From: a virus | Virus record (IMG/VR): IMGVR_UViG_3300045988_078885 | Coordinates: 1 to 5,122 of that record | Length of the DNA stretch: 5,122 nucleotides | Reading direction: 5' to 3' (one strand) | Part shown: positions 1 through 5,122 of the stretch, one piece after another | How the letters are laid out: each line of letters starts with the position of its first letter | Position numbering within the stretch: the first letter of the stretch is position 1 | Position numbers and translations under genes: made by a program | The notes under the pieces: model-generated | What the model saw: only the letters and a program-made list of their open reading frames with translations | What the model was told of the DNA's origin: nothing | Database searches by the model: none

Positions 1-55
1 CCAATCTAAACTTTTATCTAAACGACAACCAATACATTGACCACAGGGAACCTTA
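1..55. repeat. Terminal redundancy. Bases 1-55 are identical to 5068-5122, marking the wrap point of a circular 5067-nt genome.
   Basis: Compared base by base: ccaatctaaacttttatctaaacgacaaccaatacattgaccacagggaacctta occurs at both ends. A 55/55 match at both termini of a ~5-kb sequence encoding Microviridae proteins is the signature of a linearised circle. Confidence 0.9.
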
Positions 56-165
56 ACTTCAAAATCTCGCAAACCTTCACTGATATTAAAAACGACAGGC
101 CACTTACCATCAGGCGTCTTTCCATGAGCTGAACGCCAACCAGTAATAGGACAAAAACACGTCAT
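1..165 (-). CDS. Replication initiator Rep/VP4, N-terminal part. The ATG is at 165..163; the ORF continues across the circular junction into 5067..4207. Reconstructed N-terminus: MTCFCPITGWRSAHGKTPDGKWPVVFNISEGLRDFEVKVPCGQCIGCRLDKSLDWAGRCIQESTLWEHNYFLTLTYDD...
   Basis: Extended by hand upstream of the ORF-track start (TTG at 5019) in the same frame through 5122 = 55 and on to an in-frame stop at 181-183. The only ATG in the extension is at 163-165. It contains the CxxC...CxxC-like PCGQCIGCRL segment and the FLTLTY rolling-circle motif I, both typical of gokushovirus VP4. No SD: the upstream sequence is CACCCTTTTTTTT-ATG. Confidence 0.85.
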   Translation of the reverse strand, partial: MTCFCPITGWRSAHGKTPDGKWPVVFNISEGLRDFEVKVPCGQCIGCRLDKSLDW

Positions 166-195
166 AAAAAAAAGGGTGTTTCACGTGAAACACCC
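166..195 (-). terminator. Perfect 22-bp palindrome GGGTGTTTCAC|GTGAAACACCC (174-195) followed on the minus strand by T8 (166-173). Rho-independent-terminator-like, ending 0 nt before the Rep ATG.
   Basis: Reverse complement of gggtgtttcac = gtgaaacaccc (checked). The run of eight A on the plus strand at 166-173 is a T8 on the coding strand directly 3' of the hairpin. Confidence 0.6.
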
Positions 196-234
196 AATCA
201 AAAGGAAGAGAAATGAAAAAGACATCGGCTTCAA

Positions 235-354
235 TTATAACCGAATACCTCCTCGAAGCGGTCGGGCGTCATTCTTTTTGCGGTGCCGCATAGCGGTTTT
301 CGTAAAAAGAGCTTTGCTCTTCCGACGGGAGATCTTCTTTCGAAACTTACTCAT
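235..354 (-). CDS. Small highly basic DNA-binding protein (Microviridae J / gokushovirus VP8-like), 39 aa: MSKFRKKISRRKSKALFTKTAMRHRKKNDARPLRGGIRL
   Basis: Hand-translated minus-strand ORF, ATG at 354..352 and TAA at 237..235. A strong SD (GAGGAGAA) lies 6 nt upstream. About 41% K/R, no acidic stretch. It sits between VP2 and Rep. It is too short to appear in the supplied ORF track. The overlapping plus-strand ORF 176..373 is its antisense shadow. Confidence 0.6.
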   Translation of the reverse strand: MSKFRKKISRRKSKALFTKTAMRHRKKNDARPLRGGIRL

Positions 355-443
355 GGTTTGTTCTCCTCAATAAAACCAATGAATTGAAGAACAGCCTTAA
401 AAATCTCGGCCACGTAAGAAAAAAACTGGTCAATAAACTCCAT
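351..443 (-). CDS. Hypothetical 30-aa peptide MEFIDQFFSYVAEIFKAVLQFIGFIEENKP. Its TGA overlaps the ATG of the J-like gene (ATGA).
   Basis: Hand translation: ATG 443..441, stop 353..351. The stop-start overlap ccATGAgt suggests translational coupling, and the SD of the J-like gene is encoded inside its last codons (att GAG GAG AAc). It has no SD of its own. The strand is T-rich, so an F-rich ORF may arise by chance. Confidence 0.25.
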   Translation of the reverse strand: MEFIDQFFSYVAEIFKAVLQFIGFIEENKP

Positions 444-446
444 TAT

Positions 447-530
447 TTAAAAACCGCGAATAAAAAAGTAAATCAAACCAACAAAAACAACAAGACCGAA
501 AAGCCAAGACAAAAAACTAACGCTTCCCAT
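447..530 (-). CDS. Hypothetical 27-aa single-pass transmembrane peptide MGSVSFLSWLFGLVVFVGLIYFFIRGF. Its start overlaps the VP2 stop. Candidate lysis/membrane peptide.
   Basis: ATG 530..528, TAA 449..447. Sequence context atgggaagcgtTAGt: the VP2 stop TAG lies 9 nt inside this ORF. A GGTGG SD-like element sits 2 nt upstream. About 20 contiguous hydrophobic residues are followed by a basic R. Caveat: the T-rich strand favours hydrophobic codons by chance. Confidence 0.3.
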   Translation of the reverse strand: MGSVSFLSWLFGLVVFVGLIYFFIRGF

Positions 531-1137
531 TGCCACCAGACTCAAAAAAACGATCTGCTAAATCACGAAGACGCTTCAATTCTGAAGCTGACGAAGCATT
601 CTCTGTGATACCAGAAAGAATACCAGCAAGACCACCAACGCCAGGAAAAGCATCATTAGCTTTTTTAATACGAAAAGTCAAAGGATTGTCATCCCAAAAT
701 CGATTTTCACGATACAAAGAATAAGCATTCTCAGAATTTATGACAGCCTGAAGACGATTAGCATTGGCAATAGCTTCTTGAGCAAAACGTTGGTCTTCCT
801 TAAGCTCCGTATCCTTCTTAATGTTATCAATTTCAGCTTTCTGTTTGTTAAGAAGATTTTGCATCTGCAAACCTTGAAAAGCAGAAGAAGCAACATCAGG
901 CATCTGAACAGCAGAACCACCAGCATTAAGACCACCGGTCGAAGCACCTTGGTTAGCAGAAAGAATGGGATTAAGACCGGCCTTACGAAGGTCGTCAACC
1001 TCCCATTGATGGCGATTCTGCATCGCCTCTTTCTGCCATAGCCAATTATGGTACTGGGAAAGGTAGTTGAAGCGGTAGTTTCCATAACCTTGAGCAGCCG
1101 AAGAAGCAGCACCGACAACAGCACCAATCCAAGACAT
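517..1137 (-). CDS. VP2 minor capsid / DNA pilot protein (gokushovirus-type), 206 aa.
   Basis: ATG at 1137..1135, preceded by an AAGGAG SD at a 5-nt spacing (ttctAAGGAGtagttATG). Gly/Ala/Gln/Asn-rich with the KAGLNPILS motif characteristic of gokushovirus VP2. Starts 9 nt after the VP1 stop. Confidence 0.8.
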   Translation of the reverse strand: MSWIGAVVGAASSAAQGYGNYRFNYLSQYHNWLWQKEAMQNRHQWEVDDLRKAGLNPILSANQGASTGGLNAGGSAVQMPDVASSAFQGLQMQNLLNKQKAEIDNIKKDTELKEDQRFAQEAIANANRLQAVINSENAYSLYRENRFWDDNPLTFRIKKANDAFPGVGGLAGILSGITENASSASELKRLRDLADRFFESGGNGKR

Positions 1138-1146
1138 AACTACTCC

Positions 1147-2808
1147 TTAGAAATGATCAACCAAACCAGGTGTCGCATAAATCGGCATCGGTCTAACGCA
1201 TTTCATTTTAAAGAAACAATCACAAATGATAGGCGGTTCGTCAGTAACCGCAACCACTCTTTCAATCGGTGTATTGTCCCGAATGAACTCACCGTTAAGA
1301 ACAGGAAGCTGATCAAACTTTTCGGCGAGATGCCACACATCAAGCGGCGTACTGGACGTCGAGCGAAGTTGACCAGTGATCATCGACTGATGGTACCGAT
1401 ACTCAGCATAACGCTCTTGGTAACCGAAGACCTTGTCGTCATCTGCAGTGCCTTGGAAATAAATTTCCTTGTTGAGAATCGCTTGCTCACCAAGGTGAGC
1501 CAGAGCAGGCCAATAGAAGTCCCAACGGCCTTTACGACTCCACATGCGCGGAAGACCTTGCTGATACGTGAGATCGGACTGCACACAACAAAAACCGATA
1601 ATCCAACCGTGTTCGACAAACGACTTAGTGAAAGCATGACGAACATCCATGCCAACACCATAAGCTGCCAAGTTACCTTGGGGCGTAGTAGCAGAATCAG
1701 CCGTGCCACTAGTCTGTTGGACAGGGTTAATGTTGATGTGCGAACGACCACCACCGAGATACTCGGGGCGTTGGAGGCGAGCATCGGGAGAAACCACGCC
1801 GAAATGGGAGCGGAGAATTTCGATATAACGTGTGCCGCCGCGAGCGTCACGCTCCATCAACTTCTGGAGTTGGAATGCCTGACGAAGATCATTAATACTA
1901 ATAGGCGTTGCTTCAGAAAGATCTACAGTACCAGAACCAGATGCAGACAAACCAGAGGCATACGACAAAGCGTAACTGTCTCCAGTCTGACCAATATGAA
2001 CAGCCTGATCACCAAGACTAGAAACAGACAAATTATCAGCAACAACAGTAACGCGATTACGATTAAAAGTAAGATTGCCAGAAGAAACGATATCAATATC
2101 GTTGACAACTGCAGGAACAGAACCGCCTAAAGAAATCTCAACACCAGGGCCTTTCTGAGGCCACGGAAGTGCACTCGTAAAGTAATCATGGAACTTAGCA
2201 ACGGGCGGGGGCTCAGATCCGTAAGTCAAAGGATTATCAACATTGGTACCAGAAATAGCCGCATCACCTACAAACTCGCGGTCCGTAGTCTTGTCGATGT
2301 TATAAGCATCCTGCAAGTTTTGATCTCGAAACCACTCGTTCCAAATGAGCGAGATGCAACGAAGCGGAAGCTCCGTCATCTTGCAATCAGCATTGACATT
2401 AACAGGCAAACCAAGGTAATCACCAATAGTCCCAATTTGAAGATTATTAAGCGTAGCCTCGGGGACAAGATAATCAGTAGAAGCAGTGGGACCAGATCTC
2501 TGGTCTCCATTAAGAGCTTCCCAATGATTCCAAACCAATCGGTTAGGAACAAAGAAAAAAAACGTTCGAAGGTACAAATTATCCATGAAAGGCACGATCG
2601 GAGTGGAAAGACGTGCCAAAAGGGAGGCGGTCACATTGAAAGTATCGCCTGGGAGTACCTCATCAATGAAAATCGGGATGAGCTTGCCAGTCTTGAAAGC
2701 CGTCTTGTGATCAAAGTCACGCTTCAAAACTGAACGAGGAATACTCACCTTCGGGAGCTCGACAAATTGGCGAGCAGGATTGCCGTAACGAACAGTAGTT
2801 TTTGACAT
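1147..2808 (-). CDS. VP1 major capsid protein (phiX174 F-like jelly-roll, gokushovirus-type), 553 aa.
   Basis: The N-terminus ...PRSVLKRDFDHKTAFKTGKLIPIFIDEVLPGDTF...FMDNLYLRTFFFFVPNRLVWNHWE... matches the conserved gokushovirus VP1 N-terminal block. The length is typical (~550 aa). SD GAGGTGA lies 8 nt upstream of ATG 2808. Confidence 0.95.
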   Translation of the reverse strand: MSKTTVRYGNPARQFVELPKVSIPRSVLKRDFDHKTAFKTGKLIPIFIDEVLPGDTFNVTASLLARLSTPIVPFMDNLYLRTFFFFVPNRLVWNHWEALNGDQRSGPTASTDYLVPEATLNNLQIGTIGDYLGLPVNVNADCKMTELPLRCISLIWNEWFRDQNLQDAYNIDKTTDREFVGDAAISGTNVDNPLTYGSEPPPVAKFHDYFTSALPWPQKGPGVEISLGGSVPAVVNDIDIVSSGNLTFNRNRVTVVADNLSVSSLGDQAVHIGQTGDSYALSYASGLSASGSGTVDLSEATPISINDLRQAFQLQKLMERDARGGTRYIEILRSHFGVVSPDARLQRPEYLGGGRSHININPVQQTSGTADSATTPQGNLAAYGVGMDVRHAFTKSFVEHGWIIGFCCVQSDLTYQQGLPRMWSRKGRWDFYWPALAHLGEQAILNKEIYFQGTADDDKVFGYQERYAEYRYHQSMITGQLRSTSSTPLDVWHLAEKFDQLPVLNGEFIRDNTPIERVVAVTDEPPIICDCFFKMKCVRPMPIYATPGLVDHF

Positions 2809-2840
2809 CTTTAGGTCACCTCATTGGAAATTCGGTGTCA

Positions 2841-2875
2841 CCTCACACAGTTACATCAAGATTAACTGTGTGAGG
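2841..2875 (-). promoter_or_regulatory. Perfect 13-bp inverted repeat (cctcacacagtta / taactgtgtgagg) with a 9-nt loop, in the VP3-VP1 intergenic space.
   Basis: Arms 2841-2853 and 2863-2875 are exact reverse complements. It begins 1 nt after the VP3 stop (2877-2879). No T-run follows on the coding strand, so this is not a classic terminator. More likely an mRNA-stability or processing hairpin, or an ssDNA structural element. Confidence 0.55.
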
Positions 2876-2876
2876 T

Positions 2877-3293
2877 TCAAACCGCAGGTTCCTGAGTCGG
2901 AACTGCGGGCTGGGTTTCAGGTTCAGCAGCTGGTTTTGAGGGACTCAAATCGCCTGCAAGTTGTTTCTTAGCGGCTTCCTCAACCAAAGACTCGACCCAA
3001 AGGCGAGGGTCGTCTTGGAATTCACGGCGTTTGTCCGCGGGAAGTTCCGCAAACGTGGCATTGACCGCAAGAATCTTATTGAGCTGTTCCTGATAATCAC
3101 CGACATCGCTGACATCCAAATGCACAGCGGCAGACGCGCGAGCGGGATCACCGAGCAAACCAGTCGCACGGTAACGCTTCAAGTAATAATCGATTGTTGT
3201 CTGAGGGTACTCAGACTGCACCGTCATTGACGGCTTCTTGTAAGTCGTGCCCTTGGAGGGCACACGAGCCGAATAGCGATCTTTAAACTTCAT
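2877..3293 (-). CDS. VP3 internal scaffolding protein (gokushovirus-type), 138 aa from ATG 3293. The ORF track extends it to a GTG at 3347.
   Basis: The central segment ...FAELPADKRREFQDDPRLWVESL... resembles the conserved LPAxVRxxFxNxP...L block of gokushovirus VP3. The C-terminus is acidic/Pro-rich. ATG 3293 has a GAGGA SD 9 nt upstream and overlaps the 3' end of the upstream ORF (ATGAAGTTTAA). Confidence 0.7.
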   Translation of the reverse strand: MKFKDRYSARVPSKGTTYKKPSMTVQSEYPQTTIDYYLKRYRATGLLGDPARASAAVHLDVSDVGDYQEQLNKILAVNATFAELPADKRREFQDDPRLWVESLVEEAAKKQLAGDLSPSKPAAEPETQPAVPTQEPAV

Positions 3294-3549
3294 CTTCCAA
3301 ATCCTCACCGACAAAAGTGAAATCGCACCATTCAGAAATGGCAACACCGTCTTCGTAAAAACGACGCTTTCTTAAACTTACGCTTTCTTTACTAGAAAGA
3401 ACAGCATGGGTCACATCTTTCGCCATCGGGTGTCGCGCAACCATACGACCCGCCTTTGTGGCGGCTCCGCGGAATGATTCAGCCGCGAGATGCACGCACG
3501 CTAATTTATATACGCCGTGCCAAATCGACAAACTGTATAAGCTAACCAT
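3283..3549 (-). CDS. Hypothetical protein, 88 aa, with an acidic C-terminus (EDLEDEV). Translationally coupled to VP3.
   Basis: ATG 3549..3547 with a strong SD AAGGAGA 6 nt upstream. Its stop TAA (3285..3283) falls 8 nt after the VP3 ATG. I do not recognise any family. Confidence 0.55.
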   Translation of the reverse strand: MVSLYSLSIWHGVYKLACVHLAAESFRGAATKAGRMVARHPMAKDVTHAVLSSKESVSLRKRRFYEDGVAISEWCDFTFVGEDLEDEV

Positions 3550-3561
3550 GGACTCTCCTTA

Positions 3562-3604
3562 GCTTTTGTTTCACAAAAGCGCGGGGCCCCCCAAGGCCCC
3601 CCGC
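3562..3604 (-). promoter_or_regulatory. Tandem hairpins: AT-type gcttttgt-ttc-acaaaagc (3562-3580) and a GC-rich gcgggg...ccccgc element (3581-3604). On the coding strand the GC hairpin is followed by TTTTGTG.
   Basis: Reverse-complement checks: cttttgt/acaaaag, gcgggg/ccccgc, and the internal self-complementary ggggcccc. On the minus strand the order is GC hairpin, then TTTTGTGAAACAAAAGC, then the SD of the 88-aa ORF. This is terminator-like and would have to be leaky. Confidence 0.5.
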
Positions 3605-3638
3605 ACGTCAACGCTCGCCTGCGGCCTCGCTGGAGGCT

Positions 3639-3848
3639 CTACGCATGACCAACAACGTCACAAATAAACGAATCATTCTTGACAAGACAATAAAACAATT
3701 TGTCAACATCTTTGTCATAAAAGAAATAACCAACTAAACGGCCTTGAGCTACCGCGCGGGAAAGCCCGCTTGGTGCCTCGATTGCGCCGCTTCGCTGGGC
3801 TCGTCGAGGTCGATTTTTTTCCGCCTTCGGCGGCTTTCCATCAGACAT
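3639..3848 (-). CDS. Questionable 69-aa basic ORF (MSDGKPPKAEKNRPRRAQRSG...) running through the hairpin-rich non-coding block. Probably not coding.
   Basis: The ATG at 3848..3846 overlaps the stop of the 110-aa ORF (ATGTCTGA). The N-terminus is K/R-rich. The Ala/Gly-rich middle is encoded by GC hairpins (3755-3833), and the AT block carries promoter-like hexamers. A second J-like protein is unlikely given the 39-aa candidate with the strong SD. Confidence 0.2.
   Translation of the reverse strand: MSDGKPPKAEKNRPRRAQRSGAIEAPSGLSRAVAQGRLVGYFFYDKDVDKLFYCLVKNDSFICDVVGHA
3755..3833. promoter_or_regulatory. Cluster of GC-rich hairpins: gcggg-aaag-cccgc (3756-3769); cctcga...tcgagg (3776-3809) followed by a plus-strand T7 (3814-3820); ccgcc-ttc-ggcgg (3821-3833).
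   Basis: All stems were verified by reverse complement. On the plus strand a hairpin followed by a T7 run resembles a rho-independent terminator. In ssDNA these would form stable stem-loops. This is the largest non-coding stretch of the genome. Confidence 0.5.
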
Positions 3849-4173
3849 TTTTCTCAACCTTATTAGAAGAGGATGCTTTCGCAAGTTCAGAAGCGAAACG
3901 TTCAGCCTTAAGAGCAGAAATGCGAGCCTCAACACCGGTCATGATTTGAACACGATTAGTGGATTCATCTTCATTCTGGAAAATGGAGCCAGTGCCCTCA
4001 TAAAAGGCACCAAGACACCAAAGATCAAAATCTTCAGGATTGCGAGAAATGACAGTGCGTGCGTCACGACAAAGATCGACAAAACTGCGCTTGGCAAGAT
4101 CGTGATTGACACAGAAAAAAGGCGTGTTGTATGACTGAGCCTTTTTGTCATAAACGCTATACAAAAACTGCAT
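3841..4173 (-). CDS. Hypothetical protein, 110 aa from ATG 4173, in the VP5 position immediately downstream of Rep.
   Basis: The ATG at 4173..4171 is preceded by TGAGGT and a 6-nt spacer (gagTGAGGTtttttATG). The ORF track starts it at a GTG at 4185. Begins 33 nt after the Rep stop. Assignment as VP5 is by position only. Sequence: MQFLYSVYDKKAQSYNTPFFCVNHDLAKRSFVDLCRDARTVISRNPEDFDLWCLGAFYEG... Confidence 0.55.
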   Translation of the reverse strand: MQFLYSVYDKKAQSYNTPFFCVNHDLAKRSFVDLCRDARTVISRNPEDFDLWCLGAFYEGTGSIFQNEDESTNRVQIMTGVEARISALKAERFASELAKASSSNKVEKNV

Positions 4174-4206
4174 AAAAAACCTCACTCAACATAATAGTAG
4201 TTGTGG

Positions 4207-5122
4207 TCACTCAAACGTACGTTTGAGAGCTTTTGCCGTGTATTCCTTTGCCTCACGGCGGGCAATCAGCCGAGACTGCTCATTGTCTAAAGAGCTCTCA
4301 GCTTTCTTAGCGATTATAGCACGCTTAGCTTTGTAATCGAAGTAGGCTTTCTTGTTAAGCTTAAAGAGCTTATCCAAATAGTAGCGCGGAACGCTATGCT
4401 TCTTCCCATTGATGAGAACGAAGCCAAGGCGTTCAATGTCCTCACGGTTTTTAATGAACCAATTAAAGCCAATGCCTGGACGGTTGCTACAGCGGGAAAA
4501 CGGGGGAAGGCGCGTACCGTAATAATCAGCGGCAGGATCGCCATAGATTTTCTTGGTCGTATAGCGCGCAACGTAACCAGCTGATTCAGCAGTAACAGAA
4601 CCGATAATCACATTACCATGACCCCAAATACGCTCAAGCCAAGCGGACCGAAACAAAGGGGAACCATCGGAGCCCATACCGTAATAGAGCAAATCCGGAA
4701 TGTCCAAGTTAAAAACAATCGCATGATAGTGCGGGCGACCTCCTTTATCACCATACTCGCCAGAAGCGAAATAACGAATGCTATTCACAAGCGTTCGTTT
4801 ACCGTCAACGATCTCATAAACTGGCTGGCGACCAAGTCCGCCAGCAAGTAAATCTTCGGAATTCAAAGGCGCAAAAACAGACTTACGCAAACGCTTCCAA
4901 AAAAGAGTGAGATGCAAAGGAATCAAACCACCATCGTCGGGGCGATCTGTACGATAACAAAAAGACGGATCTTGAAAAGACTTAACAGGAGTCCTCTCAT
5001 CATCATAAGTCAAAGTCAAAAAATAGTTATGCTCCCAAAGAGTACTTTCTTGAATACAACGACCTGCCCAATCTAAACTTTTATCTAAACGACAACCAAT
5101 ACATTGACCACAGGGAACCTTA
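4207..5122 (-). CDS. Replication initiator Rep/VP4 (rolling-circle HUH endonuclease), C-terminal 304 codons within this window. The true start lies beyond the window end, at position 165 after the circular wrap.
   Basis: Motif I FLTLTY (about 5005-5022). Motif II HYH in GRPHYHAIVFN (4723-4731; checked, cactatcat on the coding strand). Motif III YVARYTTKK (about 4561-4575), comparable to phiX174 gpA YVAKYVNKK. The ORF has no ATG until residue 116 but stays open upstream across 5122/1. Confidence 0.9.
   Translation of the reverse strand, partial: KVPCGQCIGCRLDKSLDWAGRCIQESTLWEHNYFLTLTYDDERTPVKSFQDPSFCYRTDRPDDGGLIPLHLTLFWKRLRKSVFAPLNSEDLLAGGLGRQPVYEIVDGKRTLVNSIRYFASGEYGDKGGRPHYHAIVFNLDIPDLLYYGMGSDGSPLFRSAWLERIWGHGNVIIGSVTAESAGYVARYTTKKIYGDPAADYYGTRLPPFSRCSNRPGIGFNWFIKNREDIERLGFVLINGKKHSVPRYYLDKLFKLNKKAYFDYKAKRAIIAKKAESSLDNEQSRLIARREAKEYTAKALKRTFE

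Follow-up and report, generated by a model that had tools for sequence, protein, structure and literature searches.

A consensus chromosomal parS sequence within a terminator-like hairpin upstream of rep in a gokushovirus genome

Genome organisation

The window analysed here, meaning the whole stretch of 5,122 nt, corresponds to IMGVR_UViG_3300045988_078885, which on sequence grounds is a gokushovirus. The contig carries an exact 55-nt terminal direct repeat (1-55 = 5068-5122) and is therefore circular with a unit of 5,067 nt, in which positions 5068-5122 are duplicate coordinates. ORF and Pfam annotation of the window placed all recognisable genes on the minus strand:

1..165 (first 55 codons) and 4207..5067 (the rest, including the stop), minus strand: Rep (VP4), PF23343 REP_ORF2-G2P, E 2e-16
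Minus strand: VP5, PF20577
Minus strand: scaffold VP3, PF09675
Minus strand: capsid VP1, PF02305, E 3e-163
Minus strand: VP2, a recognisable gene
235..354, minus strand: gene for a VP8/J-like small basic DNA-binding protein of 39 aa, MSKFRKKISRRKSK...RGGIRL* (MSKFRKK...), the last gene before the hairpin, with a GAGGAG Shine-Dalgarno (SD) sequence

The VP8-like protein shows 77-85% identity among relatives, and its orthologue in one of them (L004) is annotated as a 'DNA binding protein'. No DNA-level match was obtained when the whole genome was compared by megablast with GenBank phages, an IMG/VR scan with a single protein also gave no match, and relatives were obtained only via tblastn or alignment-based scans. 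The closest Rep found by tblastn is 59% identical and comes from pig faeces. The clade set, drawn from GenBank, IMG/VR and Logan/ENA assemblies, comprised 17 genomes with Rep 44-96% identical. Scans of metagenomes and GTDB genomes with a Rep alignment returned, among the matches listed, only distant relatives (at most 40% identity) and gave no host for the clade. Additionally, two tiny hydrophobic ORFs were observed on the minus strand between VP2 and the VP8-like gene, at 447-545 (32 aa from a TTG) and 351-443 (30 aa, MEFIDQFFSYVAEIFKAVLQFIGFIEENKP), and an ORF of about 30 aa is called at the equivalent place in L004, L317 and L328. These ORFs could encode membrane or lysis peptides.

The rep start and its upstream hairpin

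In the initial annotation, rep had been extended by hand across the ends of the contig. Tracing the ORF on the circle recovers the same protein of 341 aa, which starts at ATG 165..163 on the minus strand, passes from position 1 to 5067 and stops at 4207, and the ORF lister indeed reports only a TTG-started fragment of 270 aa (4207..5019). The N-terminus (MTCFCPITGW, pattern M.C..P) aligns residue for residue with the Rep starts of relatives. The region upstream of this start contains the following elements:

163..165, minus strand: start codon ATG of Rep (VP4), SD absent, N-terminus aligned with relatives
166..173, minus strand: T8 tract (U8 in the mRNA), lying between the hairpin and the rep ATG and abutting both
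174..195 (coding strand 195..174), minus strand: perfect 22-nt palindrome GGGTGTTTCACGTGAAACACCC, consisting of the parS core and a GGG/CCC clamp, a hairpin stem-loop in RNA or ssDNA
177..192, no strand assigned: 16-bp parS core TGTTTCACGTGAAACA, the same sequence as the consensus centromere site of chromosomes to which ParB/Spo0J binds
215..223, minus strand: GTCTTTTTC motif, downstream of the VP8 stop and ahead of the hairpin, present in 16/17 clade genomes including the parS-less L004, no function assigned

No SD-like sequence was found upstream of the rep ATG, in agreement with the earlier description; VP1, VP2, VP5 and the VP8-like gene each have GAGG or GGAG 6-10 nt upstream of the start. 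The feature is real in this genome but does not set it apart, as 110 of 153 gokushovirus loci lack an SD-like tetramer at rep. A hairpin with a T-run within 25 nt of the rep ATG is present at 19 of the 153 loci. A sigma-70 scan detected fewer sites than in shuffled sequences and none upstream of rep. A TATAAT sequence at 234-239 (minus strand), which overlaps the VP8 stop (..TTA TAA T) and is kept in most clade genomes, may be a -10 element or a mere by-product of the codon and stop; since it has no credible -35 and is absent in L317, no promoter is claimed.

On the coding strand, the palindrome followed by T8 was confirmed directly 5' of the rep ATG. Perfect palindromes of 22 nt are expected about 0.001 times in 5 kb (5067 x 4^-11). 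As RNA, the element folds into a 9-bp stem (5 GC) with a 4-nt ACGU loop, with a minimum free energy of -19 kcal/mol in a 91-nt context (z = -3.2), and it lies 41 nt past the stop of the last late gene (VP8/J-like). Rfam gave no match in the window at E up to 1. The proposal that this is an intrinsic terminator finds support: its anatomy is textbook, and a GC hairpin followed by T6-9 precedes an SD-less rep ATG in 17/17 clade genomes. The direct abutment on the start codon is not conserved, however, the gap between the T-run and the ATG ranging from 0 to 13 nt across the clade. Two members, L004 and L328, have hairpins of unrelated sequence at the same place; that the structure is retained with unrelated stems argues for selection acting here on a terminator-like structure. 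The outer clamp also differs among relatives (GGG/CCC, GGGG/CCCC, GGGCG/TGCCC), although it is always GC-rich. What is found is thus a GC stem-loop followed by a U-tract past a gene end, with the structure kept despite different sequence. We infer that Rep expression through such a terminator could be very low.

In phiX174, the rho-independent terminators T_J, T_F, T_G and T_H lie at gene boundaries and attenuate transcription. The element described here similarly combines a GC hairpin with a U-run at a gene boundary under transcription in one direction, and would attenuate rather than abolish downstream expression. It differs in that the stem is itself a putative protein-binding site with nucleotide-level conservation, and in that a start codon without an SD follows directly. 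A small ORF running through the hairpin (MSFSFLFLLIGCFT*) was judged not conserved, because L002 has no ATG for it. A second terminator-like element was observed at 3583-3600 on the minus strand (GGGGCCTTGGGGGGCCCC followed by GCGCTTTTGT), just 5' of the SD of an 88-aa ORF (3549..3283) with no function assigned.

The hairpin stem contains a consensus parS sequence

Positions 177-192 match the chromosomal parS pattern TGTTNCACGTGAAACA at 16/16 positions, and no other match with up to 3 mismatches was found in the window (0.04 expected). By our own arithmetic, the exact consensus would occur by chance in 5 kb with a probability of about 1e-6. The same sequence is given verbatim as 'consensus parS' in a ParB crystallography paper, and transitions at positions 5 and 12 of parS are reported to be found in nature with ParB binding retained. 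An IMG/VR scan for the 16-nt core yielded at least 120 loci; the very varied G+C of the contigs and the multiple copies on many of them pointed to a widely used protein site.

Within the clade, the hairpin is kept at the equivalent position in 17/17 genomes, a comparison that had been suggested for the palindrome, and the stem is of parS type in 15/17. Twelve of these copies are exact, two carry A12G (TGTTTCACGTGGAACA, the reverse complement of TGTTCCACGTGAAACA) and one carries C8T (L327). Among 12 non-redundant genomes, the 16-mer has a mean identity of 97%, compared with 65% for rep at the nucleotide level and 46% at its third-codon positions. In L003 and L330, the outer stem has been rebuilt (GGGCG.../...TGCCC) and the 16-mer retained. 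A stem serving only as a terminator should drift by compensatory change; the 16-mer does not, so the sequence, and not only the pairing, is conserved. The invariance of the inner stem also means that it offers no covariation evidence either way on the RNA hairpin.

Compared with chromosomal parS of ParABS systems (the Spo0J site of B. subtilis and those of Caulobacter and Burkholderia chromosome-1), the 16-bp palindrome is identical, and where relatives depart from it they mostly do so at the permissive positions 5 and 12. The copy in the window differs in being single, in lying away from any oriC on a 5-kb ssDNA-phage genome without ParA or ParB, and in its fusion to a transcription terminator. 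None of the ORFs in the window has the size of a ParB or belongs to that family, the Pfam assignments being limited to Rep, capsid, scaffold and ORF5.

A candidate replication origin upstream of VP1

A further hairpin with a 14-bp stem was identified in the VP3-VP1 intergenic region (2840-2876, minus strand). Two sequences are invariant here: CTTGATGTAA, located within the loop or adjoining it, and GTGACAC, which follows directly on the 3' side. This hairpin is present in all 10 clade genomes that cover the region, and its stems covary (CACACAG/CTGTGTG, CGCACAG/CTGTGCG, GGCACAT/ATGTGCC, GGCGCTA/TAGCGCC); the covariation was read from per-sequence folds, as loop-length differences shift the register in an ungapped alignment. 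The CTTGATGTAA loop resembles the nick region of the phiX174 origin (ACTTG and, after the nick, ATATTAAT). The hairpin is therefore proposed as a candidate Rep nick site and a better origin candidate than the palindrome at 174-195, which is improbable as a Microviridae Rep nick site or (+) origin since it is not common to all relatives with a homologous Rep. As an alternative to the terminator, the initial annotation had offered a binding site for Rep or for a host factor. With a better origin candidate elsewhere, a Rep-binding site appears unlikely, while the host-factor reading has gained strength from the consensus parS match and the conservation of the sequence.

A dif-like site and the probable host

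An additional short site was identified at the other end of rep:

4184..4211, minus strand: dif-like 28-mer AGTGACCACAA-CTACTA-TTATGTTGAGT (11-6-11; XerCD target), overlapping the rep stop, upstream of VP5

At 23/28 positions, this 28-mer agrees with the host dif seen in the empty integration site for a related prophage, and the XerD arms of the two are identical. A Rep of the clade (P0003, 59% identical) was found on contigs of 10-13 kb in which the phage sequence ends just past rep and is followed by bacterial genes. Comparison of one such prophage (L317) with an uninterrupted bacterial locus identified the spacer of the host dif, ATTCAACATAA-CTGCTA-TTATGTTGAGT (empty site at about 8545-8590 of L321), as the exact junction. 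An exact cluster look-up of the proteins flanking the prophage gave no named match; in a homology search, the closest named proteins to the flanking [FeFe] hydrogenase were from Mesosutterella and Duodenibacillus, at 67%. Furthermore, in two Sutterella bins (L214 and L215) a gokushovirus rep is followed by the same dif type, with the CTACTA spacer of the window. Together, the prophage at the host dif, the hydrogenase and the Sutterella bins suggest Sutterellaceae (Burkholderiales) as the probable hosts of the clade and XerCD as its route of integration, a proposal based on one related prophage flank and on dif similarity. Such an arrangement implies putative XerCD-mediated lysogeny in a non-enterobacterial gokushovirus clade. 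Enterobacteriaceae, Pasteurellaceae and Mycoplasmataceae are the only families reported to lack chromosomal par genes, which makes a ParABS-bearing host likely.

Integration through dif and XerCD has precedent in gokushoviruses (PMC7062461). For the enterobacterial members, XerCD integration was demonstrated experimentally, and circular phage DNA was found to persist in surviving colonies without integration (Kirchberger & Ochman 2020). The genome described here resembles that system of passive integration and pseudolysogeny in having no integrase and using a short host chromosome-maintenance site: the dif-like 28-mer adjoins rep, and integration at the host dif is seen in a clade member. The host family is probably Sutterellaceae rather than Enterobacteriaceae, and the window has an additional parS; parS and ParB have 0 mentions in Kirchberger & Ochman 2020. 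A perfect 18-bp palindrome (CTCAAACGTACGTTTGAG, 4210-4227), encoding the Rep C-terminus, was also observed and partly overlaps the dif-like motif at 4184-4211.

parS in other gokushoviruses

The recurrence of parS was assessed in loci gathered with the Rep protein, blind to parS, comprising 80 loci from IMG/VR, 80 from metagenomes (matches listed) and 29 from genome bins. The 14-bp core GTT[TC]CACGTG[AG]AAC was present in 11/80, 4/80 and 2/29 of these, respectively (17/189 among the matches listed), with about 0.004 occurrences expected per set. The parS 16-mer was the most recurrent 16-bp palindrome among the 160 viral and metagenome loci listed. The parS core was observed in at least 7 different contexts, several without a T-run or within coding sequence, including:

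Clade of the window: after the VP8 stop, fused to the terminator
Group 2 (L147-L185, L240-L247, L305): Pseudomonas/Myxococcus-type GTTCCACGTGGAAC, 1 nt past the VP8 stop, followed by a separate hairpin with T7-9 abutting rep
L214 (Sutterella bin) and L012: 15-20 nt upstream of the VP8-like gene, directly 5' of its SD
L199 group and L312: within rep or other coding sequence, encoding VSRET
L177: downstream of rep
SpV4 (L316, NC_003438): exact 16-mer at 693-708, 6 nt past the stop of the VP8-like ORF (537-686), no T-run

SpV4 is a cultured Spiroplasma phage with 32% G+C. Its site is non-coding and lies just 5' of the SD and ATG of another tiny basic ORF, and an expressed ParB is annotated in Spiroplasma eriocheiris. 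No parS was found in the genomes of phiMH2K, whose host has ParABS, or Chp2. In group 2, 7/16 parS copies are perfect and 9/16 are changed, mostly in the central CACGTG; the constraint on parS is therefore weak in this group, where sequence conservation is only partly evident. The CpG in the middle of parS has repeatedly changed from C to T (CATGTG instead of CACGTG), in L157, L163, L243 and L305 of group 2 and in the clade member L327; a mutational hotspot at CpG or a relaxation of constraint may explain this.

Proposed function and alternative explanations

These observations suggest that the phages may borrow the chromosome-segregation machinery of the host. In our preferred reading, which we hold to be reasonably probable, the palindrome is dual-purpose, acting as a terminator in RNA and as a host-ParB site in the double-stranded replicative form, where it probably aids episomal persistence. 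ParB binding, the partition or persistence role, the efficiency of termination and the identity of the host are inferred. Host ParB, which is not phage-encoded, would nucleate on parS of the double-stranded replicative form and load onto the small circle as CTP-dependent clamps, and host ParA, possibly with SMC, would position and partition the circle like a low-copy plasmid. Partition would in turn allow the phage genome to persist in dividing cells, as pseudolysogeny or a carrier state. The dif-like site near rep would act alongside, through XerCD integration or multimer resolution, so that 44 bp of parS and dif mimic would provide a 5-kb virus with both classic functions of plasmid stability, partition and Xer resolution or integration. 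In the transcript, the palindrome with its GGG/CCC clamp and U8 would form an intrinsic terminator ending the late VP1-VP2-VP8 message, the SD-less rep would be reached only by read-through, and ParB bound just upstream could also dampen rep expression. The dual-purpose reading is in line with reports that one chromosomal parS together with Par proteins stabilises unstable plasmids, and that host-type parS and Spo0J are exploited by phage phi29.

Several observations count against this dual function. The parS is dispensable in close neighbours of this lineage, with ordinary hairpins in L004 and L328, the core is altered by C8T in L327, constraint in group 2 is weak, and phiMH2K (with a ParABS host) and Chp2 do without it. 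A lytic, high-copy replicative form would need no partition, and an integrated prophage would put parS at the chromosome terminus. A parS at that position is deleterious in some bacteria.

The same parS sequence evidence would also suit a decoy, in which sites on the multicopy replicative form titrate host ParB and perturb segregation, SMC loading, division or sporulation to the benefit of the phage; the chromosome has few parS sites, and copies of the replicative form could exceed them in number. However, the dif motif and the prophage make the clade look temperate or persistent, which fits maintenance better than sabotage; we regard a decoy as unlikely. It also seems quite unlikely that the element is an intrinsic terminator alone, with the 16-mer kept as a good stem and its parS match incidental. 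The textbook hairpin with T8, the T-run and GC clamp in 17/17 clade genomes, the unrelated hairpins serving in L004 and L328 and the similar terminators abutting rep in other gokushoviruses all agree with termination, but stems normally drift in a compensatory manner, and here the 16 nt are 97% identical against 46% at third-codon positions of rep. An exact consensus would moreover arise by chance with a probability of only about 1e-6 in 5 kb, and the 16-mer recurs in unrelated gokushovirus contexts without a T-run or inside genes.

A role in phage replication was also considered, either as a Rep nick or binding site (+ origin) or as a hairpin priming complementary-strand synthesis. The palindrome lies in the main intergenic region beside rep and would form a stable ssDNA hairpin, and in ssDNA phages such as G4 and phiX174 intergenic hairpins serve as minus-strand origins. 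Nevertheless, L004 and L328 have unrelated hairpins in its place, most gokushoviruses lack it, its position varies elsewhere, including inside genes, and the hairpin upstream of VP1 is the better origin candidate, which makes a replication signal improbable. Lastly, host ParB at parS might act mainly as a roadblock or repressor of rep, a borrowed lysogeny-type repressor for which partition is irrelevant. ParB family proteins can silence adjacent genes, as P1 ParB and KorB do, and parS immediately precedes rep here, the SD of the VP8-like gene in both L214 and L012, and a small ORF in SpV4. Several parS copies are instead located within coding sequence or downstream of rep, and no promoter could be defined, so that we consider this role highly improbable.

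Precedents and implications

Host-type parS on a phage is already known from phi29, which is the closest precedent. There, Spo0J-dependent genome entrapment in B. subtilis spores likewise involves a phage without its own partition proteins that carries host chromosomal ParB sites. In contrast, phi29 has a 19-kb linear dsDNA genome and five sites with Spo0A boxes, whereas the present genome is that of a circular ssDNA microvirus with a single site and a probable proteobacterial host. The multiple sites of phi29 have no counterpart in the window at up to 3 mismatches, and no sporulation link was evident. The combination of a centromere and an Xer site on a small circle, served in trans by host proteins, also recalls the stability sites of plasmids (partition with cer/psi-type Xer resolution). 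ParAB is normally encoded by the plasmid itself, and the centromere is specific to the plasmid; the sites described here mimic those of the chromosome itself, and the replicon is a virus.

Full-text literature searching found no report of parS or ParB in Microviridae, including gokushoviruses and SpV4. A single parS copy that is fused to a terminator and accompanied by a dif mimic appears to be a new finding for ssDNA microviruses. In animal guts, microviruses belong to the most abundant and persistent phages, and they have 4-6-kb genomes without repressor, integrase or partition genes. If the proposal is true, a borrowed centromere would be a concrete and directly testable persistence mechanism for microviruses and would extend the phi29 precedent to ssDNA phages. 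More tentatively, and with somewhat more doubt than confidence, we suggest that many gokushoviruses, including SpV4, are plasmid-like episomes without a maintenance gene of their own, in which parS recruits ParABS and, in some lineages, a dif mimic recruits XerCD. The parS variant would then track the host clade and double as a host-range marker. If so, parS could serve as a sequence marker for host prediction, because the host must have ParABS and the type of parS variant is informative. For annotation, the case is a caution: what looks like a 'textbook terminator' can contain a protein-binding site on which selection acts more strongly than on the hairpin.

Judging from sequence matches, host-type parS may occur widely among phages. 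A BLAST query of 33 nt containing parS and the T-run gave matches of about 87-90% in phages of the Listeria A511/P100 type and of Clostridium, Gordonia and Arthrobacter (GenBank H44-H98), which may retain the 16-mer itself. Many larger phage contigs from IMG/VR (L010, L024, L025, L027, L065, L069, L075, L077 and L110) carry 3-5 exact 16-mers, often at promoter-like intergenic positions.
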